Source: Eukaryota sp. GEM-RC1 (taxonomy: Eukaryota). From it: a DNA stretch of 64,000 nucleotides. The notes below the pieces were generated by a model. It saw only the letters and a list, made by a program, of their open reading frames with translations. It had not been told where the DNA came from and ran no database searches. Position 1 is the stretch's first letter, and each line of letters starts with the position of its first letter. The position numbers were made by a program, and so were the translations under genes. Below are positions 6,641 through 62,989 of this stretch, piece after piece. Location of the stretch: NCBI GenBank assembly GCA_040285855.1, contig JAUFOQ010000005.1, positions 2,108,001-2,172,000 of the forward strand, given 5' to 3'.

Positions 6641-6764
6641 AATTACTGGAATTCAACAGATTGATTCCATCCAAGGGAAACCCTTTCAAACATAAAATTC
6701 TTAACACCTCCTAATAGAGCAGATTTTCTAATGATTTTTGAAAAACTCCATTTCTTCAGCATCA

Positions 6765-11614: not shown

Positions 11615-11709
11615 TTAAGGTGGTAGTAAAAGATTTGTTGATAAAAAGTTTCTACTACTACTGTACCTGACTAATAGTACTGGTAGAAATATCAGAAAGT
11701 CACTTTTCA

Positions 11710-18401: not shown

Positions 18402-18717
18402 TTTCTAATGTTTGAAACTCAAAAAAGAAAATGTTTCAGACCTGTATTAGTAACGCGATGTTCTCGTTTCTATCATATCTTCACATGTATCACGTCATCA
18501 TGTCACCTGATGACGTGTTATGGTGGTTTCTGTCTGTTTTTGCTGTCATGTAGTTATCCGACGTGTTTAGTCTGCAGTATTGATCACGTCATCAGATTTG
18601 ATGTTTGGTCAAGATTGTTATTACTGTTGTGTTATTATAACACATCAATGGTTTATAAATTATGTTCAGGTTTCGTTTGTTTTCAAATGATCTCCTTTTA
18701 AAAAGGACTTCTCCTCC

Positions 18718-22515: not shown

Positions 22516-22565
22516 TTTGTCTCACTGAGACTGTTTTCTAGTGAGACTAATTGAAACAATCAGTG
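22516..22565. mobile_element. Right-end remnant of the agtctcactgagact MITE family
   Basis: gtctcactgagact...gtgagactaattgaaacaatcagtg|ta, ~55 bp upstream of an LRR gene. Confidence 0.55.
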
Positions 22566-22620
22566 TACTACTACATGTAGTAGTACTGGTAAATATCAGA
22601 AAGTCACTTTTCCCTCATCA

Positions 22621-23714
22621 ATGGTCAAACCTCTCTCTGAACCTTTGTTGAAAAGAAGTCGTTCATCCCCTTCCAGTATCTCCTCTGTGATGTCTAACTG
22701 TGACGAACTGTCTGTATTGCCTTCAGCCACAGATTCTCCCTCTAAACGTGTCTGTGTTCAGCAGACTTTGTTGGTTCTGATTCATCTCCACTTGCTGAGA
22801 CGTCTACTCGTGGATCCTCTCGTCTTTGTTCAGGATCAAACTAATCGACATCTATATGGTTTGAAAACAGCGTTACCTGTATTCTTTGGACAAGTTGGCT
22901 ATGTAAGTAATCACTTCCTTGATTCTTCATGCCAAGCAGTTAAAGTGTTTTTGAAGTTCACACCTTTCATGCTAATCTTCATGACATTCCCAAACTAATT
23001 TCACTTGCATCTTTCTTTGGAGCAGATCAACAATCTGTTTTCTTGTACGCTCACAGAACCTTTCAAATTGAGAAAAGTCTTTTTTATTCTGGTATCATTA
23101 CAGGATTGAGAATCGAACTAAGGCAACCCTCTGATTTAGAATTTCTAAACAATTCTTCTTCTTTATTTCCCCGTCTTAAGCAGCTAGAAGTATCAGTGTT
23201 TCAACGCACCTCTGTTTCTATGTTATTGATTGAAGCGTTGAAAACCAATATTACAGTTACAAGTGTTAATCTGGGTTTCAACTATATTGGTGATGAAGGT
23301 GCCAGATCTTTGGCAAATGCATTGAAAGTTAATGCTTCTGTTACAAGTGTTAATCTAGGTGGAAACTCTATTGGAGATGAAGGTGCCAGATCTTTGGCAA
23401 ATGCATTGAAAGTTAATGCTTCTGTTACAAGTGTTAATCTAGTTGAAAACTCTATTGGAGATGAAGGTGCGAGAGCTTTGGCGGAAGCGTTGAAAGTTAA
23501 TGCTTCAGTTACAAGTGTTAATCTAGGTGGAAACTCTATTGGAGATGAAGGTGCGAGAGCTTTGGCGGAAGCGTTGAAAGTTAATGCTTCAGTTACAAGA
23601 GTTAATCTGAGTTTCAATTATATTAGAGATGACTGTGCTAGAGCTTTGGCAGATCTATTGCAAGTTAAACCTGTACTTAAAATAGGGGGAGTAAATCAAC
23701 TCAATAGACCTTAA
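22621..23714 (+). CDS. LRR family gene, copy 4; frameshift near 22950
   Basis: ORFs 22621-22998 and 23043-23714 are collinear with the paralogues. Confidence 0.8.
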
Positions 23715-41224: not shown

Positions 41225-41599
41225 ATTTCTTCATTTGCATTCCTTTTCTTTTTTCTGATCTTTGAGTGGTAGATTAATGTTGACTCGCTAGTAAGAGTCG
41301 TTACTTAATTGTTACTCTGGTAACCCCACTACTGTGGAGACAGACAATACAAATGTTTAGTTAAAAAGAATACTTCTGAAAGACTTTGTTCACAACTTCA
41401 CAATGTTTAACACAGTGATGTACAAAAATAGTAGCCGTAAATACGGTACATTTTTTCAACTTTGCCGTAAATTATTTCCGTATTTTTACATTTGCCGTAT
41501 TTTACGACAAGTTTGAAACGAAGTGAGAATACGCCAAATACGGAACATTATTTGGGATAATTGCATTTATACCTTTTTCTTTTAAATCTCTTTATTAAA

Positions 41600-42595
41600 A
41601 ACATTAAAATAAACACAAATACTAGAATTCAATATCATTAAAGCAACAATCATTGCCATTAAAACTCACATCAGCTTTTTCTTCATAAAAAACACTGAGA
41701 GCTAATAGAGCTTTTGAAATCATGATAGGAATTGTTTTAAATATTGTAAAAACAATACGATTCAACCAAAATTTGAAATCAAATTTCTTCTTCATTCTTT
41801 TTTGACCACTTTCTCAAAATCAGAGAGAAAACAAAGAGCATCTCTACCAAGTCGACCATAAATTGAAATTGCAAAAGGACATAATTTGTACTCAACATGT
41901 CTAATATGTTTGAGAGCAGTCAGTGGTTCATCATATTTGTTTCTCTTGTATTGTTCTGAAGAATTCAATGGAGAAACTTCATTTTTAGCATCCTTGAATG
42001 CACTTTTTTTTGCAAACATCCACAGTAATCACATCAACAACGGTTAGTTCATCATTAACTGATGGAACTATAACATCAGCTCTTCGTTTACCAGAAGTCT
42101 TATCAGAATCACTATTTTTTGAATTATTGATTTCCAGTGATCTCAACAGTGGCTCAACGAAAGATTCGATTTTGTAGGACTTACACATTGCATGAATTTG
42201 ATCTCTAACAGCATCATGAATACAAGTTCTATAAGTAATGAAACGATTGCAACTCAAAAGGTGAGAAAAAGTAACTAATTTACCACATTTGCATTGAAGA
42301 TCATTGGGTAAATTAGAGGGCCACAAGAAACATCGAAGTCTGAATGTTGTAGTCCATTGATGATCATTCAACAACAAACCATAGATCTGAGGAATTTGGT
42401 TAATCAAAGCAACTGAAGAACTGTCCTTTAAATCGATTAAAAAATTTGCGAAAGCTGGATTTTTTTCTTTGGCCGCGCCAAGTCGAATTTTAAAATCCAG
42501 ACATTCAAAATGTTTTAAAAGGTGTTTTTGGAGTTTCTTAAGAGCAAATTTTAACGAGGTGACACATCGTTCTGGTATTTCACAAATATCCGCTG
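41600..42595 (-). mobile_element. CRE-like RLE non-LTR retrotransposon, 3' fragment
   Basis: CKC..HLLSC knuckle, IHDAVRD, VEP, RRADV...VVDV nuclease motif, KRNKY, PFAISIYG. Confidence 0.85.
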
Positions 42596-43461
42596 GAAAA
42601 CAAATGCATTTATACCAGTGAAATAAAAAACACCTTATCATCTCTACCATACCCCTTCCAAATCTACCATACATGCAAATAAACTGGGAAGACGACTTAC
42701 CTCTTCCAATAGACGCCAATGCTACTTATAGCTGTAAGGATGACCTTTACCTTGCTCTTATTCATGAATCTCTGTTTTCCAAAATGTCGCTACGGTACCT
42801 CAAACATCTCTGAGAGCTTCAACTCAGTTATTAAAGAAAACAGAGGGTATCCCTTAAATGAGCTGTTGGAGTGTATATGAGGAAAGATAAGAGAGTGACA
42901 AGAAAAATATGCAGGTCAAGCCCAGAGAGCAAAAACGCCATTAGTTTTGTCAGTCATGAACGTTATGGAGAACAGAATTGAAGAAGCTAGGATTTTGGAT
43001 TCACGGAAGAATGGGACCACGATTGAAGTCGGAAGAGGAAGAACTTATCTTGCGGAATTGGAGCAGAAACACTGTGATTGTGGTGTCTGGCAAACTTAGG
43101 CCATTCCTTGTTCCCATGCTGCCAAAGCATTGATGTCAGAGAATCTCAAACCTTTGGAATTTGTGGATAGTTGCTTCGAAACCAGAACACAGTGAAAGAT
43201 TTATGAATGTTGGGTCACCACCTAGGGACAAGAGTCAATGGGAAACTATCGCATTGACTTTAAATCCACCTCTTGTAAGAAGAGGAGTAGGTGCTTCAAA
43301 GAGGAAGCGTACTCGTAGTTTTCTAGAGCACTGAAGATACTTGTTATAAATAAAAACGATTTATTGACAAACAACTAAAGATGCAAGAATGGTAGAAATG
43401 CAATGGGTATGGTAGATTTGGAAAATGCACACGTGTTGAATGGTATTTTTGCAAAACGCCC
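42595..43461 (+). mobile_element. MULE/Mutator remnant
   Basis: SWIM motif CDCGVWQT*AIPCSHA at ~43070-43120; inverted ttccaaatctaccatac / gtatggtagatttggaa near the two ends; right end ...gcaaaacgccc. Confidence 0.65.
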
Positions 43462-45304: not shown

Positions 45305-46648
45305 TTAGGACCCATTGAGTTGTTCTACTCCCACTATTTTAAGTCTAGGATTAACTTTTATAGTCTCTGCCAAAGCTCTAACACCTTCATCTCCAAGAGA
45401 GTTGTCCCGCAGATTAATACTTGAAACCGTAGTGTTAACTTTTAACGCCTCTGCAAAAGCCCTGGCACCGTCATCTCCAATAGAGTTATCCTCCAGATCA
45501 ATACTTGTAACTGAAGCATTCACTTTCAACGCCTCTGCTAAAGCTCTGGCACCTTCATCACCAATAGAGTTATACTCCAGATCAATACTTGTAACTGAAG
45601 CATTCACTTTCAACGCCTCTGCTAAAGCTCTGGCACCTTCATCACCAATAGAGTTATACTCCAGATCAATACTTGTAACTGAAGCATTCAATTTCAACGC
45701 CTCTGCCAAAGCTCTGGCACCTTCAACCCCAATAGAGTTGGACTTCAGATTAACACTTGTAACAGAAACATTAACTTTCAACGCCTCTGCCAAAGCTCGG
45801 ACACCTTCAGCTCCAATAGAGTTGTAACTCAGATTTACACTTGTAACAGAAACATTAACTTTCAACGCCTCTGCCAAAGCTCGGACACCTTCAGCTCCAA
45901 TAGAGTTGTAACTCAGATTAACACTTGTAACAGAAACATTAACTTTCAACGCCTCTGCCAAAGCTCGGGCACCTTCAGCTCCAATAGAGTTGTAACCCAG
46001 ATTAACACTGGTAACGGAGGTATTGGTTTTCAACGCTTCAATCAATAACATAGAAACAGAGGTGCGTTGGAACACTGATACTTCTAGTTGCTTAAGACGT
46101 GGAATTAAAGAGGAAGAATTGTTTAGAAACTCTAAATCAGAGGGTTCCATTAGAACGATTCTCAATCCTGTAATTATACCAGAATAATTAAGAAACTTCT
46201 CCATTTCTAAAATTCCGTAAACGTCCAAGAAAACAGACTGTAGATCCACTCCAAAGAAAGAAGCAAGTGAAATCAGTTTGGGGAAGTCTTCATCATCGGC
46301 ACGAAAGGTGTGTAATTGAAAATAGACTTTAACTGCTTGGTATGAAGAATCAAGGAAGTGACTACTTACATAGCCAACTTGTCCAAAGAATGCAGGTAAT
46401 GCTGTTTTCAAAGCAGTGAGTTCAAGATTAGTTCGATTATGATTATTTCCGAGAGTATCCTTGAGAAGACGTCTCAGCAAATGAAGGTGGATAAGAATCA
46501 ATAAAGTCTGCTGAACATGAACACGTTTAGAGGAAGAAACTGTGGATGAAGACAATACAGATAGTTCGCCACAATTAGACATCACAGAGGAGATACTGGA
46601 AGGGGATGAACGACTCCTTTTCAAAGATTCAGGACAAGGTGTGACCAT
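45305..46648 (-). CDS. LRR family gene, copy 5 (intact, about 9 LRRs)
   Basis: Uninterrupted from MVTPCPESLKRSRS (ATG 46648) to the stop codon. Confidence 0.9.
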   Translation of the reverse strand: MVTPCPESLKRSRSSPSSISSVMSNCGELSVLSSSTVSSSKRVHVQQTLLILIHLHLLRRLLKDTLGNNHNRTNLELTALKTALPAFFGQVGYVSSHFLDSSYQAVKVYFQLHTFRADDEDFPKLISLASFFGVDLQSVFLDVYGILEMEKFLNYSGIITGLRIVLMEPSDLEFLNNSSSLIPRLKQLEVSVFQRTSVSMLLIEALKTNTSVTSVNLGYNSIGAEGARALAEALKVNVSVTSVNLSYNSIGAEGVRALAEALKVNVSVTSVNLSYNSIGAEGVRALAEALKVNVSVTSVNLKSNSIGVEGARALAEALKLNASVTSIDLEYNSIGDEGARALAEALKVNASVTSIDLEYNSIGDEGARALAEALKVNASVTSIDLEDNSIGDDGARAFAEALKVNTTVSSINLRDNSLGDEGVRALAETIKVNPRLKIVGVEQLNGS

Positions 46649-47396
46649 TGATGCTGAAGAAATGGGGTTTTTCTGCATTCTCTCAAACCAACTTCTATTA
46701 AAACCATAAACCATTCGAAATCTCCGGACGATAAGTGTGGTGAATCTATTTCTTCCATCATGAATCATTCTTGAAGACATCCTGATGCTTGTCCTCAAGA
46801 TGACGTGTTGTTCTGTTCAAAATAAATGCTAGAGTATATCATTGACCGACTCTTTTGTAATGGATTGTCCTTTTTGATGACGTGTCACGTCATTGAATAT
46901 CTAAATAATGTAACGATTCAACGTGACCTTCACATCCAAAACGATTTAACAGTTAGTGTTGAGTTCTTGGTTGAGAGTGACACAATATTATTCACAGTAA
47001 GTTTGTGGATTGAGAACCAAGATTCCCTCCAATTACTACAGGAGAATCAATTACGGTCACGTTTGCTGATGGTTATGTGTACTTCAAACCTTCTACGTGT
47101 ACCACTACTTTCAGTATCGAAAACCCTAAAAATTTGGTTTTCGGAGTGTATCTGTATTGGCATAATAAGGAATGGAAAGTGGAACGTATTTGATTTTTCG
47201 TTTGTCTTATATGATTTATAAAGGCATCTGATTGTAATTTAAATGAATAAAATTAGGAATTAGTTATCGTTTTAAAAATCCGTTAGAAATCGTCATCTGA
47301 ATCAGATCAAGTTGTATCACTATAATCATAACGAAAAAAATGGGGTTTATGATCAATCACTGAAATAGATGCATTTGCAGAAAATAAACAATATCA

Positions 47397-48495
47397 TCAT
47401 CTACTATCATATATGCCTTGATGTGAATACTTTACATCTACTTTGGTATTAACTTTCAATGCATCTACCAAAGCTTCGGCACCTTCATATCTAATAGAGT
47501 TATACTCCAGATCAACACTGGTAATTGCAGAATTAACTTTCAACGCCTCTGCCAAAGCTTCGGCACCTTCATCTCCAATAGAGTTTAAACTCAAATCAAC
47601 ACTTGTAACTGAAGCATTAACTTTCAACGCATCTGCCAAAGCTCTAGCACCTTCATTTCCGATAGAGTTGAATTTAAGATCAACACTGGTAACTGAAGCA
47701 TTCACTTTCAACGCCTCTGCAAAAGCTCTGGCACCTTCAATTCCGATAGAGTTGAGGTTAAGATCAACACTGGTAACTGAAGCATTCACTTTCAACGCCT
47801 CTGCCAAAGCTCTGGCACCTTCATATCCAATAGAGTTATCCCACAGATTAACACTTGTAATTGAAGTACTAACTTTCAACGCTTCAATCAATAACATAGA
47901 AACAGAGGTGCGTTCGAACACTTCTACTTCTAGCTGCTTAAGACGTGGAAACAAAGAAGAAGAATTGTTTAGAAACTCTAAATCAGAGGGTTCCATTAGT
48001 TTGATTCTCAATCCTGTAATTACACCAGAATAATTAAGACACTTCTCAATTTCTAAGCTTCCGTAAGTGTACAAGTAAACAGATTGTAGATATGCTCCAA
48101 AAGAAAGATGCAAGTGAAATTAGTTTGCGAAGGTGTTTGAGATCAGCATGAAAGGTGTGTACTGCAAAATACATTTTAACTGCTTGGAATGAGGAATCAA
48201 GGAAGTGATTACTTACATAGCCAACTTGTCCAAAGAATGCAGGTAATGCTGTTTTCAAAGCAGAAAGATGACGATTAGTTCGATCCTCAACAAAGTCGAG
48301 AGGATCCATGAGTAGACGTCTCAGCAAGTGGAGATGGATAAGAATCAACAAAGTTTGCTGAACATGGACACGTTTAGAGGGAGGAGGTGTGAATGAAGAA
48401 AATACAGACAGTTCGTCAGAGTTAGACATCGCAGAGGAGATATTGGAAGGGGATGAACGACTTCTTTTCAAAGATTCAGGACAAAGTGTGACCAT
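47397..48495 (-). CDS. LRR family gene, copy 6; frameshift near 48100
   Basis: ORFs 48046-48495 and 47397-48113 are collinear with the paralogues. Confidence 0.8.
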
Positions 48496-48810
48496 TGATC
48501 AAGAAATGAGGTTTGCACTTGGGATTAAAATCATGAACCCTCCGAATTTTCAAGTCACTAAAGCAACATTGTCAAAGAATCCTTTACAAGTGTTGTGTAA
48601 AGTACATTTAATATAGTATTCCTCTCTGAGCAATGAAAAATCACTAATGGTCATACATAAAGTTGAGTTCAGTGATGTTAAAGAAATAGAATACATCATT
48701 AGAAAATTCCGTAAATGTGTTGATTAACGCCTTTGTACAAGGAAAGAGATTTATAATGACTTAATTTCTATCTTACTACAACAAGTGCCGCAAATTACAA
48801 TACGCTAAAC

Positions 48811-49523
48811 CAGTGATGTACAAAAATGGCAGCCGTAAATACGGTAACTTTTCAAGTTTGCCGTAAATTATTTCCGTATTTTTACATTTGCCGTATTTTA
48901 CGGCAAGTTTGAAACGAAGTGAGAATACGCCAAATACGGAAAATTATTTTTATAATTGATCCTACAAAAACTAATAGCAAATAAAGATCAAAACCGTGAT
49001 CCATCACTAATCAGAATAGGGATGTTAATATTGTTCTGAATGACCTGCATGCAGAACCGTTTCAACACTGTCCAGCAGTTTCTATGTAGAGAAGAAAAAG
49101 TTGACGTCTTAAAGGTGTCCACTTCAAACGATGACGATGATCAACATAATACGGTTTTTCGAGTTGTCTTAGCAGGATTATCACATTTGAGTAATAAAAA
49201 CAATAAGGTTGTACCAGCTTCTAAGTATTTCAGCACTTGTCGTGTATCCGACCCAGTCAATTCTCTTCTTTAATGTACAAGGGGGATATAGAATGGCTCA
49301 GTTGTTACAGAACTGATCAAAATAATCAAGAATGCTTTGATGTTTCGATTTACGGGGTGTACAAATAGAGTATTTTATATTCTCACTACGGAAACATTTG
49401 CCGTAAATAATTTCCGTGTTTTTACATTTACCGTATTTTACGGATACCGAGTATAGTGCCGTACCGTATTTTACGGTAGTGTACGGCAAAAAGTGTACGG
49501 TACGCTATTTTTGTACATCACTG
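48811..49523. mobile_element. Inner hAT-type MITE unit (second left end plus the shared right end)
   Basis: Left end cagtgatgtacaaaaatggc, homologous over ~145 bp to 41413-41560; ccgta/tacgg subterminal repeats; its left flank (cgctaaac) does not match the right flank. Confidence 0.8.
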
Positions 49524-49602
49524 GTTTAACAAATAATCAACGATGAGCAAGCGAAGACGGAACCAATTGATTTAGACAAGGAAGTACTAAAACAAAATAA
49601 AA

Positions 49603-50588
49603 ATGGCAGACCCATTGTCCTTACTTCCTCCTCCAACAATGCCTCCACCTTCTGCTCCTCTTGATTCTTCTTTATCTGATGTGGAACAACTTGAAATTCC
49701 TTCTATAGACACAGTAAATAACATGGACATCGAAAACGATATTGAACAGATTGCCGAGCTCGCAACTAGCCTTGAAAACCATCGTCTCACTTGTGAGCAG
49801 AAAGGAAAGTATCTCGAAGCCGAACAAGCCAAACTCAAACTTCAACAACTCCGTCATTTGATTGCTGAAAAGAAGAAAGATGATATACTGCTTCGTCAAC
49901 AAGAAGAAGTTGATGATCTTAGAGATTATCATTCCTCTGAACTGGACAATATCATCAATGATTGGGATCAAAAGGAACGTGAGCTTAATGCGCGGTTACT
50001 CAAGGAGTTGGAAGACATAAAAGCTCTACAGCGGGAGGAAGAGGACACGTTGACCACAGAACAGGAGCAACTTATTGAAACCTCTCGAGTCAGACCTAGC
50101 GCTGCTCTCCTAGATCTTCGTAAGATAGAGTTAACCCTTGCTAAGGCCAGTAACTACTCTGAAGCTGCTAAAATCAAAAGGACGCCGATCTACGTGAGGC
50201 TTTTGAGCTAGAGAAGACTCGTAATACACTTCGCACCACATTTCAAAGTAAGCTACGAAAACTACAAACAAAACATAAGAACCAACTCTCAGCCATGAAC
50301 CGCCGTTTTTCCACTGCAAAGTCTGAATTCGAGTGTAAAAGGAACAAAGCCCTGGACATTGCTCAAAAGAAACTACGCAACGCACTTCACGAACAGAGCC
50401 TACAACATGGATTAGAGGTGGTTGCTGTGGATAAGGCCTTTGGACTTAAACAGTCTAATCATAGTGAGGAAGTACATTCTCCTAGGGGTGGAAGTCCCAG
50501 ACCTAAGCCAAAGGTACGTAAACCATTGTCAGCGTCACCATTTGTTTCTTCTGGATCTTTTGTGAAAAAAAGCAAGAAGCGATATTAA
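49603..50588 (+). CDS. Coiled-coil protein of unknown function; frameshift near 50178
   Basis: ORFs 49603-50211 and 50295-50588; heptad-rich, with YLEAEQAK / NYSEAAKIK motifs. Confidence 0.7.
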
Positions 50589-52324
50589 TATTAATGCATC
50601 ATATTGTACAATAAATTAGCCTTTTTTAAGGAAATGAGTGGAATTAGTTTGTGATAAAAGAATGTTGTATTGTGTTGTGATTTTGGAAGGAAACACGAAA
50701 TGTCAGAATTTTGTAATAGATCTGGCCTTTTTTTAGCATCAGTTTTTTAACGTTACAATATTGCTAGCATGAGCAAGGAAAAATCATGTTAAATCTTATG
50801 GGGGATGTTTCTATCAGCTCTGCTTCATGTCTGATTACTCAAATTTACGATAATTTTACTTATAATATCTCTTGGTCATTGAGCGTGTGTATTCACTCAA
50901 GAATACACACCATGTATACAGACGGTGAAACTAACAATTGAACAGAGCTGTACCTACAGTTCCTAATTTATTTACTTCGATCTTTTAAATATGTAATAAA
51001 ATAAAAGAAACTGTAACAATTTTCTCTAAATCTAGATCTGCGTCACTGTGCCTTCCAAACTAGGTCCATGTCTGTAGAAAACTCGTCTAATACTAGTATC
51101 TTGTTCATTCTGAATTAATCCAGAGCTTCTTCACCCGTATAGTACCAAGACTTCAACAGAACTGAAATGGTTCACGTGATTTACAAAAGAAGCGGACGTA
51201 TGTACTGAGGCAAACACACAACAAGAAATTGCAGGCTAATTGATTTGTAATCCAAAGATGTTGCTCACCTCAATCACAAAATTTATTCGAAATTAGTATT
51301 TGTTCCATTTGCTATTTCTATTTTTGGTGGTATTGACATGGCTTCTCAGTTTTTAACTGACTTTGGATCTATGTGTAAGTCTCAGAATAAGAGATTTAAC
51401 TTATCAATTTGGCATAACCCTTTGATTTTTTCTCTGTTCCGTTCAATTCCTAAGTTTATTTAATCAATTATCATAAAATTGTATAAGAACTGTAGTAGTA
51501 TTAACCAGGCATTTTCTATGTCTAGTGTTTGATAGCTGTTATTTTGATATGTATTTTTGCCCCTTCATCAATGAACAGTTTGTTATTAACACCCAGCGAT
51601 AGTACTGGATGTTGTTCACTGATACCAAATTTTAGTTGTTTAGTATAATTCACTTGGTATACATAAATATTGTAGATATTCATCAGAGTGATCTTTAGCA
51701 GGGTGAGTAGTAACGATGTGAGACATAATTAACCATAGTGACGAGAAAAGTGTTCTCTTTGTTGTATGATTCTAGTTCAGAAGTTGACCAGGAGCCTTTT
51801 CAGGACATTGTGGTGATTTGGCGATAATCGTTTTTGTAGGAGGCTGAAGATGCACTTTATTTCTGTTATTTCTGTTATTTCTGTTATTATTTGTGTTGGT
51901 TTCGTTCAAAGTTGCTTGTTTTAGAACATGTACAATTTGCGGCGGCAAAATTTAAATGTATATCGATTCAACTATTGAATCTTCCTGATTGCCAGGACAA
52001 CAGATACGACAACAACAGTATACGCCAAAATACAAAAATATTAATTTGAATATTTGTTTTTCAATTTTAAATTACAGTATTTTATGAATCGATATGTATT
52101 CTTTATGTATTTTTTTTCAAAACTATTTGTAATTTCCTTGAGTGATCCATGTGCTCCTTTCAGTTCTTGTAGATCCCCTGGGTGGATTCCTGTGTTTACC
52201 TCTCCCGCTGATTGTTCTTTTCGTGTCTCTTCAGTCTTTGACAGTTGCTTTGCAAAAAATGATTTGTAGCTTTAAGTTATGTGGACATTTGACGTTGAAG
52301 TCCCACATCCTGAAATACTATACC

Positions 52325-52640
52325 CATATTTTCTCGAGGCGTTCCTTTGTTTATACTCTTCTTTCCAACTTTTCATCAACCAAACACGATCACGTGTTTA
52401 AGGATATGCCAAGAGAACATATTTTCTCGAGGCGTTCCTTTGTTCTACCTTTGTTACATGGTTTGTTTACTCACTTTTCGTCACTCAAACACGATCACGT
52501 GTTTAAGGATGTGCCAAGAGAACATATTTTCTCGAGGCGTTCCTTTGTTTATACTCTTCTTTCCAACTTTTCGTCACTCAAACACGATCACGTGTTTAAG
52601 GATGTGCCAAGAGAACATATTTTCTCGAGGCGTTCCTTTT
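52325..52640. repeat. Tandem repeats (units of 93, 105 and 93 bp plus a partial fourth) with internal hairpins
   Basis: catattttctcgaggcgttcc starts at 52325, 52418, 52523 and 52616; each full unit carries aaacacg-atca-cgtgttt. Confidence 0.9.
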
Positions 52641-52789
52641 TCTCTCATGGATTCTCGAATTATTCTATGTTGTTTCTTCTTTTGTTGTTGTTAGGGAAAG
52701 TCTTGAGTTCGTCTCAGTCGTTGTTTTGTTTTTACGATCATAAAGTCAGCACTTGTATGGTTTTTCTACAATCAAGTCTCCAGTCATCA

Positions 52790-52843
52790 CAATTTCTCCG
52801 TGATTTGACTATGGACGGAGACATAGAGTCAAACCCTGGTCCT
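52790..52843 (+). other. 2A-like ribosomal skipping (StopGo) peptide
   Basis: QFLRDLTMDGDIESNPGP matches the D(V/I)ExNPGP consensus and has the typical L..L...GD upstream context. Confidence 0.85.
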
Positions 52844-55800
52844 TTTGTCACTGAGGAAGGAATCACTACATTGAAGCCCTCCGTATGGCTCGATGATTCA
52901 GTTGTTGACTTTTATGGTGAGTACATCACCGAGAGCAGCGAGTTATGCCAGTTTTTCCGTATCGGGAATCTTCATGCTGCAGTGAGTTATGGCGATTTTG
53001 ACACATTAGCTCTTGAATTTCGAAATGTTCAGAATTCAATGCGAGAGACTGGGGAAAGGTTGTTATTTATTCCAATAAACGATGGTGTCTTTCGTGGTAC
53101 AGCAACTCATTGGACTCTACTAGTTTGTGACATTGATAGTACGTCATTTTTTCACTTGAACCAATGTTCACTGACAGTTCAATTCAACTTTCATTTGACG
53201 TTTTAACTCAAAATGATCAAGTTGTAAGTACATTACAGGAATATTTGCGTCATTTTGGAAATTTTTCCAATTTAGGAAAGCTCCCAGTTATTAAACAGCA
53301 AACTCCCAACGACTGTGGACCATATATCTTAATGTATATGCAACGATTTGTTCATTTGGCATCAACATCAGACAATTTCCAGGAAATTATGTCTCAAGTC
53401 CAAGGTTATGTCGATTATGATGCTTTTAACATGAGAAAACAAGTTCTAAATCTATTAGGAACTACTCATCCTACGCCTTTTGCTATACTTGCTGTAAGTA
53501 TTGTCAATGAGTGCTTTTCAAACAGCACTCAAGCACATTCAACCCCTTCTCAACAACAAATGAATAGATCTGCTGGTACTTCTGAAATAGCCGAACATCC
53601 AACACTAATGTCATCTCCTGATGAAACTCGACAAGTGCCATTGACTACTCCCAATCAACTTATAGACTCAAATCGTACAAGAAAAACTCGTCAATCTAGA
53701 AAATATCCTCGAAAAAGAAATTTTCTCAAAAATATCACATTATACAACATCAACATCGTGGAATTCTAACACAATCTCGTCCTAGACCACTTTTACTAAG
53801 ATCTGATCAAATTGACTCACTAAAACCAAATGTACTGCTTCATGATTCTGTCATTGACTATGTTGGTCAGTACATTGCTGAAAAGAGTAATCTATGCGAG
53901 TTCTTTGAAGTGGCCAACATTCAAGATGCAATCAATCTTTCACAATATAACATAATGTTTGAACAATTTAGAGAGGTTCAATTATCAATGGAAAAATCAA
54001 GTAAAAGACACACTAAAAAGTGTAAGAAACGTTTCTTGTTTATTCCAATACATGACGGTCTCTTTGGTACAACAGCCACTCACTGGTCACTGTTAATCTG
54101 CGATATTGAAAACAAACAATACATTTCTATTGACTCAATGTGTACAGAAGATCAACGATCTCAGTTTTCTAACACTTTATCACGGATTGACACTGTCATT
54201 TCACAATTACAGCAATTCCTGTTTGATATGGCAAATTTCAGCTACATAGCTAGAGTACCAGTTCAACAAGTCCAAACTCTCGTTGACTGTGGTCTATTTA
54301 ATCTAATGTATATGAATAAAATTGTCGAGAGTGAATCAACATCAACAAATCTTTTCGAAATTCTGTCTAAAGTCTCTAATTGTGTTGTTTATAATGCATT
54401 AGAAACGAGAAAACAAATACTGTCTCAAATCGTTACTACTCACCCTGACGAAGATCACCCTGATGAATACCGACAATATGTATGTACTCATGCCCAAGGT
54501 ATTTTAAATGAGTTTTATTCTGATGAGATTGAATCACCTGTTAATCAACCTGTACAGTGTCAATCTGAAAGTTTAACTCCTGAAACAATGGTAGATGATA
54601 TTAGTTACAAGGAAACGGTGTCAAAGCTCACTTATCAAAACTTTCTCAAAAGTTTACCTGGAAATTTATCTAACCGGAAAAGAAACGTCTTTTGAAGTTA
54701 AAAATGATTGAACAAGCGCTGGAAGAAGCTGAAGAATTATTTCAAGAAAGTTATCATAACTTTAGTCGTCCAGAGTTGACAGATCTTCCAGAAATAAATT
54801 TACTAACTCCAAAGATAAATGTTGCTGCTTGTGAGAAACTTGATACAGCAGAAACAGCAGAAACAATTGAGTCATCTGAAACCACGGAAACAACAGAAGC
54901 AACAGAAACAATTGAGTCATCTGACACCACTGAACCAACAACAGCAACAGGTAATAGAAAAACAACAGTTGCCAAAAGGAAAACCACCAAACCAAAAGCA
55001 AGTGGAGTATCAAATGCGACAAAGAGTTTGAAACCTCCTAAAAAGCCAATGATTGAGTTTCTGAAACATTCCCAATTACCAAATAACTCTAATCATTGTT
55101 CAATATTGTCTTTTGATATTGAAACTAGAGAAATTGATCAAATCCCTGCAGAGACAGTTACACAGGAGTTGGACGATCAAAGAAAGAACGAGAATGAATC
55201 TCTCAAAATGAAAAGTGATGCAGAAAAAGAAGTTTGGATTCAAAACCAACAAGTTTTTATGATTTCTGGAGTGTTTGGTCATTTTATAAAAGATCAATTT
55301 TACCTTCAAGACAATTTTGTTGCAACTTTAGAGTTGACTCAAGAATCTGATGTTGAACTGCCACCTGATTGTAGAAACCTTCAATTTTTTGAAAACGAAA
55401 AACAGTTACTAGAGTTTTTTGTCAACTATTTGAATGATAAAAATCCCTCAGTTTTAACTGGATATAACATAACTGACTTCGATAATGTTGTTTTAGGCAA
55501 CAGGATTGTTACACTTGGAGTCGACTTTCCAGAACCAATGCTAGATGAAACAACTAAATCTCATTTATCATCTCTATGGCAAAATGTTTGTTCTGAATGG
55601 GCTGGTAGAATTGTCTGTGATTCATACGTTTATGCTAAGCAATTTATTGTTTCAAAATGTTCAAAGTCTTTAAGATCATTAAGTTGGTTTTTATTAAACG
55701 AATCTAAAGGACGTCTTCATGACGGATTGCACCACTTATTGCCTATTGATTGTGTTGATGAAAGACCTCAAGAAGTTGTAAACTATTGCTTCAAAGATAG

Positions 55801-57585
55801 TGTAATAGCATTGAAGTTGTTTTTATTGTTTCAATCAAATAAAATCGTTCACCCAACTTTTGTAACACATAAAACTACACTAAAGTCTATTGTCAAACAT
55901 TTTGGATTAACGCTATTACTCGATTATTATGCTCAATTGGTTCACAAACTTAGAATGCACACTTCCTATTGCTTGAAGCTGTTGTTATTACACATGGATA
56001 AGAATGGTGAAAAATTACCTTTAATTACAAGGAAAGAAGTAGAACATATTCAAACTCTGTTAAGATACATCTCTGCTGAGCATCATGAGATTGAATTATG
56101 TAATCAAGGACGACCTTCCACATATAATGAACACTTGAAAAACTTTGTTTTAGAAGAATACAAACAAGTAATGCTCAACAATGGAGGAATTCCACTCTTT
56201 CCAGCTGCTCATTCCTCTCGGCTTATGGCAATGGTTGGTGAAACTATTAAATCGAATTTGGACACCAATATTAAAATGCGATATGCTCAATACATTGACA
56301 AATTTATTAATGTTTATTTTCAAAAGACTGATCAAGAAGAAAAAATGTCAAAAAAAGAACAGTCTGTTTTTCGTTGGAGACTTAGACAAGTTAAAAATGT
56401 CTTTGTTGAAGGTAACAGAAATGACATTCCAAAGACCCCTGCAGAAATAAAACAATTTATTCAAAGATGTAATACAGAAATTCTTCAAGACGACAGTAAT
56501 TAGAAGTTTGAACATTGCAGGTAAAATTAAACTTCTATGGGCAGCTAACGACTATGTTGAAGGATTGTTTAGAGATAAATATTTTATTGATGTTCTCATC
56601 CCACCATCAATTGATATTCAAAATGCTAATGGTGTTTATAAAGAGAAAGTCGTTAAATCAAGTTCGTGAACATCCTCAATCCTTTATTAAATCTGCGATT
56701 CAAATAAATAACTATCTTGAAAGTGAAGGAGCAAGTGCTTACAATGTAATACCGATTGTTCGTCACGTCACACCAGGTTTCTTTGAAATAGACACACAAG
56801 GTCTTTTGGGGAATATTACGTTCCACTTTGTCAACACAACAAGTGAATGTCAAGAAGAAAATGTCTGAGTTGAATACAAAAGATGAAATTCTCCTGCTGA
56901 ACAAAATCAATTCTGGTCTTACTTTTTCAACTTTAATCGTCCATTTATAAAGAAAGGTTATAAGTTTAACAATACCATTAAACTGATGGTTTCTCTGCCT
57001 GTGTTGAACTGACCAGAGAGGACTGTGTGGGAATGTCCTTTAAACCAGTCAGTGCAAAGTTCTCCAGTAAAGAAGAATATGTTCAAGACTATGATGTTGA
57101 AGAGTTTTCATTGAAAACAAAAGTTTTTATTGATCCTGGAAAAACAGATTTACTTTATTTTTGTTCAGAGAGAAGTAAATAGGCCATTTGCTGAACAAAA
57201 AGCCCGTGAAATGAGAAACAGAGAATACGAGTGGTTAAGATTGACAGAGACAGAATGGTCCAGATGGTCAAGGGTCCATCAAAAGTTTAGAAGGGGAAAG
57301 AAAAAAGAATTCATTCTCCGAGATGGAAAGACAGTTGAAGAAGAAGAGTCAACATTGTCCATAGAAAATTCGAAATCGACTCTTTATGACACATTCTATG
57401 ACTATGTGAGTTCCAAGCTTACAGTTATTGAATCAACATTTGATTTCTGCTGTTTGATGATATGGCGCATTCAAAAATGCAAAGATACGTCCATATTCAA
57501 AAAACAGAAAGTAAGTTGTTGAAAAATATGACTGCAAAAGGATGGAATAAAAATGACTGTGTATTGATGTTTGGTCACAATGGTA

Positions 57586-58817
57586 AAACCACCTACGGCG
57601 ATATCACTGGCGTCTGCGCTAATCAGCACGCGTTGGTCCCTGTCTGGTAGACTGAGAGGCATGTGATTGATGATCTTATTTCTGATTGTCTCAAAATTAG
57701 ATTGATGAAGAGGTGTCCATTTTACTGAACGAGCGTTGTTCTTGACTAAGTTTATGATTGGAGCCAGAAGGTCTGATGCACCTGGAATAAAGTCTTTTAT
57801 GTAGTTAATCGAACCCACGAAGCTACGAACTTCTTTAATTGTGGTTGGTACGGGCAACTCTAGGAGAGCTGTGATACGCGATGGGTCAATACTGCGTGTA
57901 TTGTTAACGAACTTACTGCCCAAGATCTTTAGTGGGTGTTTCTTTGTCACAAAATGGCATTTGGGTAGGCCAAGGTTGACTCTACGTGTTAATGCTTTAG
58001 TCAGAACGAATCGGATTCGGCTCATAAATTCGTCGAATGTACGGCCTACTATGATGATGTCATCGATGTAGATGGATATGCTCTCATGGTTGAATATTTC
58101 ATACATCAAATTTTGAAATATCGCAGGGACGTTCTTGAGTCCAAAACAAGCTCTTTTAAATCGGATGGCTTTGCCAGGGATTACTAGAGTTGTCTTGTCT
58201 CTGTCCTTTTCTGCGAGGTTCAATTGCCAGAAGGCTTTCGGAAGATCCAAGGTCGCTATGAAATTAGCTTCACTCAGAAATTCCAAGATGTCGATGATCT
58301 TTGGAAGATTCGGTTCGACAACTAGGGTCAATGCGTTGATTCCATCGGAACCACTGAAGTCTCCCGTAAGGCGGGGCTTACGTTGATCGGGATAGACCAC
58401 CAGTACTACTGGTAAACTGAACTGTCCGTTGGGAGTTGTTAACTCAGCAAAGTCCTGCCGGACATGTTCATCGAAAATCTCTTCGGCAATCCGTTGTTTC
58501 ATTGGATTGAGCCGTCGAGGTTTCCGTCTCACAGTGGACTCTTCATTGTCGAAGTCGATCGCCATGGGAGGACAATCGATGCCGTCTTTGTGAGGAGCTG
58601 TTGAAAATATTGAGGAAAACTCCTGAAGCAGGCTCAATAAGCTCTTAGCTCTGTTTTCATCATCTAGTTTGATAGTGCTACCTGAATCGAATACATGTTT
58701 ATTAAAGTCTACAATGTTATCAATAGAATGGCTACTGGGAGGTTGTATGATACGTGAGTCGAACTCAGACTCATCGTTCACGGTGGCCAGGATGGCCTTG
58801 TCAATCCGGATGACTAG
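57586..58817 (-). CDS. pol: Reverse transcriptase + start of RNase H (truncated)
   Basis: LDLPKAFWQ, FGLKNVP, YIDDII, VRSFVG, ADAS; same frame as gag-pro across a TGA. Confidence 0.88.
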
Positions 58818-60386
58818 TCAGTCTTCGGTCAGTAGTCCTAACTGTTTCATCAGATCGATTCCCAATAATAGTTTGTTGGATCCTGGTATTATTGGTAACG
58901 TCTTATCCACATGTGTTAGGTACGCGATACTACTGGTATCGAAGGTCAAGATGCCCTGGGCGCTACCCAAGGACCGGGACTCAACATTGTTTGCGGATGT
59001 GAAGCGAACATTTTTGTTGACGGGCGTCATGTTACACTTCGTAGCCAGGTCTTGTGTAATGACGGACATGGTTGCTCCACTGTCCCAAAAACCTTGAACC
59101 GGAATTCCGTTAATCATCAGTTTGCAGCTGAGAAGAGGGAGTGGGTTCTGACTACTTATGCTGAATATGGAATTCAGGATTTGTGAGTTCGTATTACCAT
59201 TGGCAGAACTGATGTTGCTCAATGGGTTTAAGAATTGATTGGTTTCAATCAAACTGGGATTTGATTGACTAGATGTGATGTTATCAAATATATCTGCAAG
59301 GCTGTTGATATGTGCTGAATTTGCATTGAAATATTTAGATTTTTTATGGGACGAGTGTTTCTTGCTATGACTACGAGATGGTTTTGAGGTGGAACTCTTG
59401 GCATTACGTTGTTCTAAAGGAAGCTCACTACGTTTACATTCGGGATCCGGACATTGGAGGATGGAATGGCCCTTTTCGCCACAAAATCTACAGGCGTCGG
59501 GGTCTTTATCTTCAGATCGAGGCTTCTTCGAGGGTGGCTTGGAGCTGGATGCCGATCTACGAGATTTACCGGGTTCACTAGACTGAACCGGGATGAGAGG
59601 ACGGGAAGTCCAGGATTTGGGGAGGTCTTCCCAGGTAGCTGTATCTCTAAGATGAGCTATTTCGGCAATTCGTTGTTCGTTCTGCACGTTGGCTGGAGCA
59701 GATTTCCATCTCTCGCACCAAGTGTCATAACGTTCTTTCACTTCGAAGATTAATCCTTGGATATCCGGAGAATCTTGGTAGAGAGGCCAACATTCAATCC
59801 AGATGGATACGATGCTTAAGTTTGACAGAATAGCTTTAACAGTGGCTTTGTCTGGTAACGCAGTCATAGGCTTATTCTTCAGCTTTATGGCCTGGGTTCT
59901 TTGTAGAACGCGGTGCAACCGTGATATGAAATCACTCCATCGCTTTTCAGGGTCTGTGATGGACCACTTCATCTTGATCTTGTTCAGCTCATTCAAGGCA
60001 GTGGTCTCGTCTGGGAACTGAGTACGCTTGAGGAGAGCTAACCATAAGGTGAGAGGGTTCTTACCATCCCACTCCTTTTGCATAGACAGCTGGGTCTGTA
60101 AGTCGAACTTCACAAAGCGTTGGATGTAAGAAGGATCAGCCTGTGCTGCAGCCGTTCGACAGAAGTCGAAAAAATGTCTTGGCCATCCGAATGGAGCCCC
60201 TACCAATGTTTTGTGGTTAGGGTCCATCACGCTCCATTGAAGAAAGTCTTGAGCAAATTCAATGATGTCGTGTGGTTTCAAACTCGAAAGCATCTTGGGT
60301 TGAAGCTTAGAGTTCTTCATAGAGTCGAGGGGGACTTTCTGTTGGAAAGTGACAACACTATGGGACATTGGGGAACGTTGTTCCAC
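58818..60386 (-). CDS. gag: Gag (CCHC knuckle) + aspartic protease
   Basis: CRFCGEKGHSILQC; FWDSGAT..I; LLLGID. Confidence 0.85.
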   Translation of the reverse strand: MEQRSPMSHSVVTFQQKVPLDSMKNSKLQPKMLSSLKPHDIIEFAQDFLQWSVMDPNHKTLVGAPFGWPRHFFDFCRTAAAQADPSYIQRFVKFDLQTQLSMQKEWDGKNPLTLWLALLKRTQFPDETTALNELNKIKMKWSITDPEKRWSDFISRLHRVLQRTQAIKLKNKPMTALPDKATVKAILSNLSIVSIWIECWPLYQDSPDIQGLIFEVKERYDTWCERWKSAPANVQNEQRIAEIAHLRDTATWEDLPKSWTSRPLIPVQSSEPGKSRRSASSSKPPSKKPRSEDKDPDACRFCGEKGHSILQCPDPECKRSELPLEQRNAKSSTSKPSRSHSKKHSSHKKSKYFNANSAHINSLADIFDNITSSQSNPSLIETNQFLNPLSNISSANGNTNSQILNSIFSISSQNPLPLLSCKLMINGIPVQGFWDSGATMSVITQDLATKCNMTPVNKNVRFTSANNVESRSLGSAQGILTFDTSSIAYLTHVDKTLPIIPGSNKLLLGIDLMKQLGLLTED

Positions 60387-61783
60387 AACCGAATTGGAAG
60401 CTGTCGGAGCCAGGGGGGAAGGAGGTCAGTTGAAGGGGAGGTTGATGTCGTGCTAAGATCACTCAAGGAGAGACCAAGCTGGTGGACATCAGGTGGTAGA
60501 TTTGATTGATCGGAAGGTGATTGATAAAATTCGGAAATTTCTTTCACTTTAGACTTCGGATTTGCATTTGCTCTACGAGCGAGTTCTTCTTCATATTCCA
60601 CTCGAGCTCGGTATTTCAATGCTGTGGGTTGGATAACCACTTCATCAGTCGGGATTATGGTGCTCTGGATAGCTTCGGGGAGCGGAGAGGAGTTGTGATC
60701 TGATGGGCGAATTCTTTTGTCCAAATTCGACTTTTCAAAAGTTCGACCTGTCAATACTTCCTGGACCTTTTCCCAGCATTTTTCACGGGAATCATGGTTT
60801 CCGGTATACTAGGGTCCATCAGGATAGTATGGGGTTTTCCTCGGTCGTCAAGGATGGTGTAAGTTCCTTCAAGGGGGAGAACTTCGTCGTTAAATTGTCT
60901 CCTGATCAGTCTTATGGCTGCCTGAGCTGGTCTAGGATAGCGGTTTCTTAGGTAGTCCGTTCTATCTTTGGCTCCATGAAGAAAATCATGTACCATTTGG
61001 CGATCTGATGGGAACATACGATGTTCTACTCGTTTTAGTTCCTCTTCTGTTAACCCTTGTTGAAAAGTTCCAGGAGGGGCCTGGAATAACTCTGAGGAAC
61101 CCGTCTAAGTGGACCTGACAGGATAAAACCCTTGGTTTGAGGAGTAGGGACGGAACCTGCAACCTCGGAAGTTGCTGGAAGGGCGGAACCTTCAACAAAG
61201 AGGGACTTTGAAGGGCGGAACCTTCTAAAGGGATGTAGTCGTTCCTTGGAGGGCGGGACCATCCGAGAAGAAACGACTCATTGTGGGGTCCTGGGACCTT
61301 GGTGATTGCGGGGGCACTCTGTCACAAGGCGCAGCACCACATGGGACACAATAATCATTGTTGTCTGTAGACATGGGAGAAGGTAAAGTAAATTTATTTT
61401 AAGGGTACTGTACCAGTACTAACAGGCAGAACCTAAAACATCTCCGATCAAGTAGAGGTGTTGGTTGGAGAAACTTCTTTAAGAGAAATGGTTATAACAT
61501 AGTTTTGGTAGACGAGAGTTACACGTCTTCAAAGTGTCCTACTTGTTGGAAGCCAGTTAAAGTGTTCAAAGAAATCAGTAATCCAAAACCATGGAAAAGA
61601 GAGAAGAAACCTCTGGTAAAGTGTCACGCTTTGTTGAGATGCAAGTCCCAAGAATGTAGAGAAGAATGTCATGGTAGCGGCAAGATTTGGAATCGTAACC
61701 AGTTAGCATGTATCAACATCAAGACCATTGTGGAGCATCATTTGGAGCGGGGTCTAGGAGTTAGAGCCAGTTATTTGTCATAG

Positions 61784-61899
61784 TCATAGTCATAGCATTT
61801 ATTTACTACAGTGAATCTGTAGCATTATTGAATCTTAGAATTTGTCAGACATCTTCTCAGATTCATTTGAATTTCAAGAAAATGGCCAAAAGTACATTG
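61784..61899 (+). ncRNA. Candidate Fanzor omegaRNA scaffold / right element end
   Basis: Directly after the Fanzor stop; hairpins ctacag-tgaat-ctgtag (61806-61822) and tgaatcttagaa...ttctcagattca (61829-61865); called by position and analogy only. Confidence 0.45.
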
Positions 61900-62989
61900 T
61901 GTTGCCGTAAGGTCAACGTTGATACAAATGGAAAGAAGAAGTGTTTATTGTTGCTAGAGATCCTTAAGAATAGATGCCACGTCATCAGAGGTGAAGATAT
62001 CTACTAGGTATCGTTATCTTCACTAACACTACATTTTCCCATTTCTTTTGAAGCTGTGCAGAGAACTTATTTGAACTCATAAAGGGGGTTCAACAAACGC
62101 TTGGGACCTGGATACGAGTCATTTGCATGAGACAGGAAGTGAATTTCGTGTTTTACCTTAGAAGGACAATCCCGAGCTAAATGGCCATTCTGATGACACT
62201 TAAAACAAGTACCATTAGCCAGATTGCGAGATCTATCCGAGGAACGAGACTTTGTGCCAACTTGACGGGAGGGATCGCAGTTTTCGGCAGGAATCCTTGT
62301 AGACTTATTCCATGAGGCTACTCTGGAACAATCAAGCAACTCATCCGTTGCAGTATCTACTAAGGTAGAGAAGTCAGGGAAGACCTCATCGCGGATCCGA
62401 GCTATCAACGATTTTTGCAAGCCCATGGGAAGGATCCCCTTGGCAAATCGTGTCATAAAAGCTGAGTCAGGCAACTTCAGTCCGGAAGCCCGGCTTTTCG
62501 CCTGAAGGAAACGCCTCAGGTAGCCTGACATTCGTTCACGGACATCGCCTTCTCGGACATCAACTCTAATCTCAGATATCGCAGAGTGGAATTCCTCGTA
62601 CGTCGAGAACGAGGTGGTGGATCTCAGGTGATCCAAGAAAACCTCTTCAGAGGCATCAACCCCAGGCTTAGTAAGAATCAAAGACTCTAGTAAGAAGGGG
62701 TCGACGAGGAGCCTTGGCGGAACAAGGTCCTTTTTCGGGGTGACGGAAGAGTACACTTTCCACTGTTGTAGGAACAGGAGTACGTCTTCTACTTTCATGG
62801 AAGAAAGTGAGGGGAGAACTACGCGGGTAGAAAACATCTGCAGTGAGGGCCAATAATTATTGTTGCCGTAAGGTCAACGTTGATACAAATGGAAAGAAGA
62901 AGTGTTTATTGTTGCTAGAGATCCTTAAGAATAGATGCCACGTCATCAGAGGTGAAGATATCTACTAGGTATCGTTATCTTCACTAACA
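61900..62989 (-). mobile_element. Gag-only miniature LTR retroelement (1090 bp)
   Basis: Identical-looking 129-bp LTRs at 61900-62028 and 62861-62989 (TG..CA); 4-bp TSD attg; polypurine tract aaaagaaatgggaaaa on the minus strand before the 3' LTR. Confidence 0.93.
62067..62837 (-). CDS. gag: Gag with CCHC zinc knuckle
   Basis: CFKCHQNGHLARDC; intact ORF with no pol. Confidence 0.85.
   Translation of the reverse strand: MFSTRVVLPSLSSMKVEDVLLFLQQWKVYSSVTPKKDLVPPRLLVDPFLLESLILTKPGVDASEEVFLDHLRSTTSFSTYEEFHSAISEIRVDVREGDVRERMSGYLRRFLQAKSRASGLKLPDSAFMTRFAKGILPMGLQKSLIARIRDEVFPDFSTLVDTATDELLDCSRVASWNKSTRIPAENCDPSRQVGTKSRSSDRSRNLANGTCFKCHQNGHLARDCPSKVKHEIHFLSHANDSYPGPKRLLNPLYEFK

Follow-up and report, generated by a model that had tools for sequence, protein, structure and literature searches.

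A Fanzor1 nuclease joined to a PolB-type exonuclease, Ulp1 proteases and a 2A-like motif in the protist Eukaryota sp. GEM-RC1 and its relatives

Between positions 52667 and 61783 of a 64,000-nucleotide stretch of the Eukaryota sp. GEM-RC1 genome (contig JAUFOQ010000005.1; the whole stretch is called the window below, and positions are counted from its first nucleotide), reading frames for a leader with a 2A motif, two C48/Ulp1 proteases, a linker, a PolB-type 3'-5' exonuclease and a Fanzor1 nuclease follow one another on the plus strand. The locus raises the question whether these parts belong to a single protein and, if so, what use a mobile element could make of it. An original prediction, made from the sequence alone, had answered with one polyprotein of roughly 1700 amino acids (aa). 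Every part that it listed was recovered by Pfam and motif searches, in the same order and on the same strand, and relatives of the gene confirm the single chain; its length is corrected here to about 1,760 aa, reading through from the ATG at 52667 once a foreign insert is removed.

One chain from leader to nuclease

Pfam searches of the window detected Peptidase_C48 in the open reading frames (ORFs) 53140-53769 (E = 2e-4) and 53700-54695 (E = 2e-10), DNA_pol_B_exo1 in the ORF 54674-56503 (E = 6e-15) and Cas12f1-like_TNB at 61403-61783 (E = 7e-5, under the curated cut-off). The ORF with the exonuclease is an unbroken frame of 609 aa which is common to the exonuclease and the N-terminal half of Fanzor. 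The window copy is in pieces and false introns occur in some database models, and the domains could then be fragments nested by chance, or gene prediction could have produced the arrangement. This explanation was rejected, and we hold it to be extremely improbable, because the exonuclease and the start of Fanzor lie in one open frame of the raw window DNA, because in the GEM-RC1 sibling P0198 (identical to the window at 609 of 639 residues, about 95%) a single frame leads from the second protease via the exonuclease into Fanzor, and because three isolates show the same order in subfamilies that are about 30-50% alike.

The relatives comprise 60 named gene models, 43 from TZLM3-RCL, 3 from GEM-RC1 and 14 from TZLM1-RC, the last of which we take to belong to the genus Skoliomonas. 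TZLM3-RCL and GEM-RC are Skoliomonas isolates, free-living anaerobic metamonads (10.1101/2023.05.03.539051). Among the siblings the domains are linked: P0002 (1846 aa) and P0005 (1905 aa) hold the 2A motif, two Ulp1 domains, the exonuclease and a complete Fanzor in one predicted protein, and P0016 (1571 aa) has one Ulp1 domain, exonuclease and Fanzor in a single chain. Protease, exonuclease and RuvC-III occur together in 4 of the 60 models and the sequence from the exonuclease through RuvC-III in 13; wherever a model has the Fanzor start motif, the exonuclease stands directly upstream (26/26, P0198 being counted from its Pfam tag). A search among longer proteins gave 3 matches out of 2,830 candidates, and Eukaryota sp. 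TZLM3-RCL was the source of each match. Viral contigs contained no relative among 2 pattern matches and metagenomes none among 594 matches, and a further metagenome scan gave a single weak match out of 375, in a GC-rich contig, which was judged to be due to chance. We conclude that the fusion is real and that it represents a lineage-wide, apparently undescribed Fanzor1 architecture.

The part in front of the exonuclease varies between models. The window, P0002 and P0005 have a head with 2A and two proteases; a head with 2A and one protease exists in two unrelated versions (P0012, P0023, P0027, P0031 and P0032 for one, P0015 and P0016 for the other); P0179, P0195 and P0196 have a 2A head without protease; and in P0190 the order is protease, 2A, exonuclease. 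The exonuclease and Fanzor are the fixed core of the family and the proteases are a variable add-on, present in 0, 1 or 2 copies. In P0001 and P0007, which belong to different subfamilies, a DEAH-helicase head is joined at the linker, one intact and one degenerate; these heads may be prediction joins. A DEAH helicase was rejected as part of the window locus, the two heads having no tblastn match in the window and being only about 20% alike. The 43 models of TZLM3-RCL are dispersed over 11 contigs, many of them being 92-100% alike, and the family looks recently expanded.

The C-terminal part is a Fanzor1 by sequence and by predicted fold, in agreement with the RuvC assignment of the original prediction; the nuclease is predicted to be RNA-guided. 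Compared with solved structures, the relative P0008 matched SpuFz1 (E = 4e-31) and PpFz1 (E = 4e-24) and, far behind, Pol delta (E = 1e-3) and GtFz1 (E = 0.024). The model of another relative, P0009 (mean predicted local distance difference test, pLDDT, 83; predicted template modelling score 0.72), stands here for the family and not for the window copy itself. Its residues 248-940 superpose on SpuFz1 with Z 28.5 over 564 aligned residues (root-mean-square deviation 3.8), its enlarged WED/REC architecture is closer to Fanzor1 than to Fanzor2 or TnpB, with Fanzor1 chains in the top 7 rows of both fold searches, and Z for Fanzor1 ranges from 22 to 28.5.

Concerning the catalytic residues, the RuvC-I Asp lies in an IDPG motif and is present in 86/86 outside rows and in most rows of the clade. 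The RuvC-II Glu is followed after six residues by CxxC and a later Cys pair, a Glu at this distance before a C4 zinc finger being a Fanzor1 feature (PMC13565253). The third residue of the predicted RuvC had to be corrected: it is Asn across the clade versus Asp in 84/86 outside rows, and the strict 'RD' motif of PMC3627910 is unmatched at RuvC-III of the window. A RuvC killed by the change from Asp to Asn was nevertheless rejected, since GtFz1, an active Fanzor1, cuts with Asn, the D606N variant of SpuFz1 is more active (PMC11423790) and Asn is general in the clade; the residue is therefore compatible with cutting. In a FastTree phylogeny of 140 RuvC-region rows (near-duplicate clade members and rows below 75% coverage omitted), the window falls in a clade of 15 rows with 100% Shimodaira-Hasegawa support, 13 of which are labelled as this lineage (the window plus 12 named proteins), the other 2 having no label.

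The DEDDy exonuclease is likewise as predicted: the motifs Exo I (DxE), Exo II (NxxxFD) and Exo III (YxxxD) are intact in the window, and their acidic residues are kept in 5/5 of the subfamily representatives aligned. Pairwise identity of the exonuclease is 28-50% over six well-aligned rows; one alignment, A2, misaligned P0196 and P0179 over this domain, and another alignment of representatives was used for both. Residues 1-246 of the P0009 model resemble PolB exonucleases (Z 16-17) and lead into Fanzor without a linker. The exonuclease profile matches 31 of the 197 collected proteins, each of them from a named isolate of this lineage; among the best 150 of 1,294 representatives, it matches no other Fanzor protein. 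According to the model, the exonuclease is fused at the N-terminus of WED. It is predicted to act on DNA 3' ends.

Two Ulp1 proteases resembling SENP8 had been predicted as well, and both Pfam and Atlas assign them to C48. In domain 2 the His-Asp-Cys triad with the oxyanion Gln is complete and the top Atlas matches are C48/SENP8 (score 0.95); in domain 1 His, Gln and Cys are present and the Asp position reads Glu, beside a frameshift. SENP8 is the best solved match for the relative P0031 (E = 4e-8). The second protease of the window had no sequence match to solved structures, and its low-confidence model (pLDDT 58) ranked yeast Ulp1 first, with all E above 1e-3. When these proteases were sought on other types of element, the sibling P0198 was the sole match, which is a weak negative.

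The original prediction had also suggested that the proteases could process the polyprotein itself. Such self-cleavage, in the manner of viral CE-clan proteases, would be in line with the C48 fold, common with viral processing proteases (weak rows), and with a Gly-Gly just before the exonuclease in one subfamily. Gly-Gly is found in only 2 of 9 linkers examined, however, both from one subfamily, and the sibling of the window is without it; moreover, the closest solved match is SENP8, one subfamily separates its parts via 2A and another has no protease at all. Self-processing at di-glycine sites was rejected, no such site being conserved, and we regard self-cleavage by the proteases as improbable.

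The predicted leader ending in DIESNPGP was recovered: this is the sole such core in the six frames of the window, where about 2e-4 would be expected by chance. A 2A-like motif, with variants, occurs in 14 of the 197 collected proteins, all of this family, and the core is absent from 82,065 residues of the other representative matches. Its retention across divergence, together with its shift to a site between domains, suggests from the sequences that the motif is functional. Upstream context matters for 2A skipping (for 2A peptides, see PMC12338488, PMC13405545, PMC4981915, PMC8623073).

A possible homing nuclease and its alternatives

We infer from these sequences that the element could be a homing nuclease which cleaves empty sites and itself trims the resulting end, the copy in the window being disabled; this reading is tentative, and we give it a little less than an even chance. 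Homing of the phage T4 td intron reportedly depends on a B-family polymerase, whose 3'-5' exonuclease clears the DNA lying between cut and insertion site. For nucleases of the TnpB family, gene conversion is the proposed way of restoring or spreading elements, in a process of restorative homing (PMC13565253). The proposed working would involve four steps: (i) ribosomal skipping at 2A would remove the short leader and, in one subfamily, separate the protease from the nuclease; (ii) an omegaRNA from the 3' flank would guide the D-E-N RuvC to DNA matching that flank; (iii) because Fanzor1 cuts 14-21 bases past the target-adjacent motif (TAM) (PMC10432273), the TAM-side end would keep a short 3' tail that matches nothing at that point of the donor with the element, and its removal by the exonuclease would let repair synthesis copy the element in; and (iv) the proteases would free repair or silencing factors of the host from tags of the SUMO or NEDD8 type. 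Ulp1 is known as transposon cargo in Ginger and Mutator, with host ubiquitin-like tags as its proposed target (PMC2836005). To arrive at new sites, copies would depend on a transposase acting in trans or on some unknown route.

In its boldest form, which we find conceivable and yet unlikely, the proposal would describe a transposase-free selfish element with its whole copying kit in one virus-style polyprotein. Such an element would be a natural eukaryotic gene drive of the cut-trim-and-copy type. The kit, for which our expectation is just as low, would consist of an RNA-guided cutter, its own tail-clearing exonuclease and ubiquitin-like proteases steering host repair.

Several points weigh against the homing proposal. 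As originally predicted, no transposase was found among the 17 ORFs scanned at 49.6-64 kb, and none was found in the 32 of 60 relatives scanned with Pfam; terminal inverted repeats were not found either, the best inverted match in this one copy being a 10-mer between 51460-52700 and the 3' flank. With neither a transposase nor a terminal repeat found, the copies have no evident means of spreading to new sites, and excision is a requirement of restorative homing in its described form. Engineered fusions with TREX1, TREX2 and T5 all impaired a Fanzor2, MmeFz2 (PMC12923547). The 3' flank of this single copy (61783-61899) folds into two hairpins with a z of -1.57, and 14 of 200 shuffled sequences fold equally well. 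The relatives are predicted gene models, known as proteins, and false introns join pieces in some of them (P0011, P0023). Finally, the P0187 subfamily has a divergent RuvC-I context, P0033 is without the usual RuvC-I motif, and the 2A variant of P0016 ends in NAGP and is, judging by this ending, probably inactive.

The same anatomy and the same intact motifs would also suit an exonuclease that spoils the cut site against perfect re-joining and re-cutting, and thereby limits host damage or mutates competitors. In agreement with this idea, Cas9TX, an engineered fusion of Cas9 and TREX2, prevents perfect repair and repeated cleavage (PMC8904484). We consider it unlikely: a destroyed target yields no copy to a selfish element, the family looks recently expanded, and the impairment of MmeFz2 counts here too.

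The gene could otherwise be cargo of a larger or trans-mobilised DNA transposon, in which the exonuclease and the proteases would serve transposition, by end or flap trimming and by repair signalling, the fusion ensuring co-expression only. The DEDDh nucleases of P and piggyBac and the Ulp1 of Ginger and Mutator are known as such helper cargo, Spu-1 Fanzor elements are likewise without a transposase between their ends, and the DEAH-helicase heads of P0001 and P0007 could be read in the same direction. The exonuclease, however, is joined directly, with no linker, and no case of its loss was seen, the protease being the part that is exchanged or cut off by 2A, and the 60 models hold no transposase as far as they were scanned; a cargo role, including the functions named for it, is thus doubtful in our view.

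A different substrate would be assumed if the exonuclease matured the 3' end of the omegaRNA by trimming a read-through transcript to guide length. The point of fusion is the WED lobe, which handles the guide, and other DEDD enzymes trim RNA. In addition, the transcript runs into flanking DNA and carries the guide at its 3' end (PMC13565253). Every match of the domain is nonetheless to a DNA-polymerase proofreading domain, which acts on DNA, and other Fanzor1 proteins manage without an exonuclease, so that guide maturation appears distinctly unlikely.

The family bears on questions beyond this locus. Engineers attach exonucleases to Cas9 and Cas12 to alter repair outcomes, an approach that failed on a Fanzor2 (PMC12923547), whereas evolution kept a linker-less exonuclease-Fanzor1 across deeply diverged subfamilies. 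Intact versions of 940-1,100 aa exist that can be expressed and assayed, and they make testable both the removal of the stretch between cut and insertion point in TnpB/Fanzor homing and the role of Fanzor in elements without a transposase. The data also extend the rare D-E-N triad to an entire clade, place Fanzors among metamonad protists and add a case of putative 2A recoding within a Fanzor gene.

The damaged window copy and its surroundings

The features of the locus are collected in Table 1. The left end of the element was not found in the window, from this one copy. The original prediction had called the copy damaged; the breaks are present, and it had not mentioned a 3.8-kb retroelement fragment inside RuvC.

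Table 1. Features of the Fanzor1 locus, in window positions
Feature	Position	Strand	Remarks
Three tandem repeats, 93-117 nt each, upstream of the gene	52325-52643	+	Probable 5' non-coding region
Hydrophobic leader ending in 2A-like StopGo motif	52667-52843	+	2A core 52820-52843; matching motifs in relatives
C48/Ulp1 domain 1	52859-53472	+	His 53108, Cys 53314; frameshift near 53150 beside expected Asp
Linker between proteases	53473-53807	+	Frame change within 53700-53769, from ORF overlap
C48/Ulp1 domain 2, SENP8-like, tandem duplicate of domain 1	53808-54449	+	His 54081, Asp 54132, Cys 54288
Protease-exonuclease linker	54450-55096	+	Conserved segment 54633-54750 across frameshift 54678, Thr/Glu repeats, Lys-rich stretch
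PolB-type DEDDy 3'-5' exonuclease, without polymerase domain	55097-55850	+	Exo I/II/III intact: 55115, 55466, 55784
Fanzor1 WED/REC and RuvC-I (Asp 57132), in frame with exonuclease	55853-57588	+	
Ty3/gypsy-type retroelement fragment, foreign to the Fanzor gene	57589-61417	-	gag, zinc knuckle, protease, reverse transcriptase, truncated RNase H
Fanzor1 C-terminus to stop	61418-61783	+	RuvC-II Glu 61514, C4 zinc finger, RuvC-III Asn 61697
Candidate omegaRNA scaffold region in the 3' flank	61784-61899	+	Two predicted hairpins, weak support

Frameshift-aware alignments placed 9 frameshifts, near 53150, 54678, 56501, 56661, 56806, 56888, 56980, 57177 and 57472, and revealed no stop codon made by substitution; a tenth frameshift is implied by the ORF overlap and was not placed by alignment. 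Most of them are at short base runs, and at two breaks about 10 bases seem to be deleted, which points to true decay. Four observations speak against decay alone: P0011, identical at 479 of 619 residues, ends like the window in the out-of-frame tail at 57472; P0133 (143 of 151 identical) slips at an A-run that is intact in the window; host leucine-rich-repeat (LRR) paralogues show 3 base-run slips in 5 copies compared; and the terminal branch of the window is short (0.079, FastTree). The window has 10 frameshifts per 106 base runs of at least four, versus 3 per 63 in the LRR paralogues (Fisher p 0.38), this background consisting of six paralogues with the reference copy counted in. Part of the window frameshifts may be assembly errors instead of decay. 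For the named relatives, the assemblies rest on Nanopore reads corrected with short reads (10.1101/2023.05.03.539051), and the method used for the window itself may differ.

The insert at about 57589-61417 accounts for about 3.8 kb of the 9.1-kb interval. It holds RVT_1 (E = 5e-16), gag, an aspartic protease, a zinc knuckle and a partial RNase H, and the Fanzor residues on its two sides rejoin without loss relative to the relatives. It begins at a primer-site-like sequence and stops in the middle of RNase H, and neither a long terminal repeat (LTR) nor a clear target duplication was seen for it; these traits would fit the capture of a complementary DNA fragment at a break rather than normal integration. 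Because this fragment splits RuvC, the window copy is disabled whether the frameshifts are real or not, provided that the insert is real. Between its protease and reverse transcriptase there is an in-frame TGA and then CTAG, presumably a read-through signal. The single Rfam match in the window, below the gathering score, also lies within the retroelement.

A second retroelement, a gag-only LTR element at 61900-62989, stands 117 nt behind the Fanzor stop, with gag and a zinc knuckle on the minus strand and no pol. Its LTRs of 129 nt are identical at 129/129 positions, with TG...CA ends and a 4-bp ATTG target duplication; this element is very recent and lies inside or beside the candidate guide-RNA region. 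On the other side, 0.9 kb upstream of the gene, an inverted 66-nt piece (51660-51725) is 88% identical to the end of protease 2 (54421-54486) and is, by this similarity, a scrap of a sibling copy.

Elsewhere in the window, four fragments at 51251-51463, 5634-6101, 13983-14363 and 41985-42725, of which the first two match each other (E = 5e-21), resemble what we take to be the C-terminal endonuclease region of CRE-type non-LTR retrotransposons. A non-coding element of 723 nt at 48806-49528, like a miniature inverted-repeat transposable element, has internal repeats besides its terminal inverted repeats, which are 25 nt long and 96% complementary, and part of it recurs at 41413-41563. Among the host genes, the LRR family with 84-nt repeats is found at 3335-4695, 6740-8432, 11656-12958, 22555-23714 and 45305-48514, three copies having single T-run frameshifts; a coiled-coil gene at 49591-50588 seems to be divided into two overlapping frames near 50175, possibly owing to a base-run slip; and the ORFs at 18691-20033 may encode the alpha subunit of an NAD(P) transhydrogenase.

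Comparison with known systems

No description of a Fanzor fused to an exonuclease, a protease or 2A was found among the matches listed by searches of the open full-text literature, a scope that leaves aside Repbase, subscription journals and supplementary Fanzor lists; in the portions of the main texts of PMC3627910, 10.1101/2023.08.09.552727, PMC10432273 and PMC10530073 that were covered, no natural protease or exonuclease fusion was found.

The closest known systems are the Fanzor1 proteins SpuFz1 of Spizellomyces punctatus (8gkh, 9ceu-9cez) and PpFz1 of Parasitella parasitica (9cf0-9cf3) (PMC10432273, PMC11423790). The present family shares with them the whole WED-REC-RuvC-TNB body (E = 4e-31 and 4e-24; Z 25-28), the RuvC-II Glu just before the zinc finger, the multi-copy state and a locus in which no transposase was seen. 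It differs from them by about 1,000 extra N-terminal residues, with the exonuclease, 0-2 proteases and 2A, and by Asn in place of the third Asp, and whereas Spu-1 has 30-nt terminal inverted repeats, none were found at the window locus, in one copy. The RuvC-III Asn and the fold (Z 22) are in common with GtFz1 of Guillardia theta (9cer), which has a D-E-N triad; in the excerpt of PMC11423790, fused enzymes are not mentioned for GtFz1. Since sequence similarity to GtFz1 is only weak, the Asn of the clade and that of GtFz1, which is outside the tree, may have arisen separately.

For the added domains, the exonuclease agrees with the proofreading domain of family-B polymerases (Pol delta 3iay, Pol epsilon, the Pol alpha fold and viral PolB) in Exo I/II/III, in PF03104 and in fold (Z 16-17), but it has no polymerase domain and carries a conserved helical insert after Exo I. 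A C48 protease related to SENP8/NEDP1 on a mobile element recalls the Ulp1-bearing transposons Ginger1 and Mutator (PMC2836005), although here Ulp1 is joined to an RNA-guided-type nuclease and not to a DDE transposase, and its copy number varies. The putative 2A has the D(V/I)ExNPGP form of the 2A/StopGo sequences of RNA viruses as well as non-LTR retrotransposons (PMC8623073, PMC4981915), its nine-residue core being the one listed for active iflavirus 2As, and it ends an N-terminal hydrophobic leader as do sea-urchin NLR 2As; unlike in the known 2A hosts, it is found within a Fanzor gene. Finally, a guided nuclease with an attached exonuclease exists in the engineered Cas9TX (PMC8904484) and exoCasMINI; while the engineered Fanzor2 fusions had lowered activity (PMC12923547), the exonuclease-Fanzor1 fusion described here is natural, linker-less and PolB-derived.

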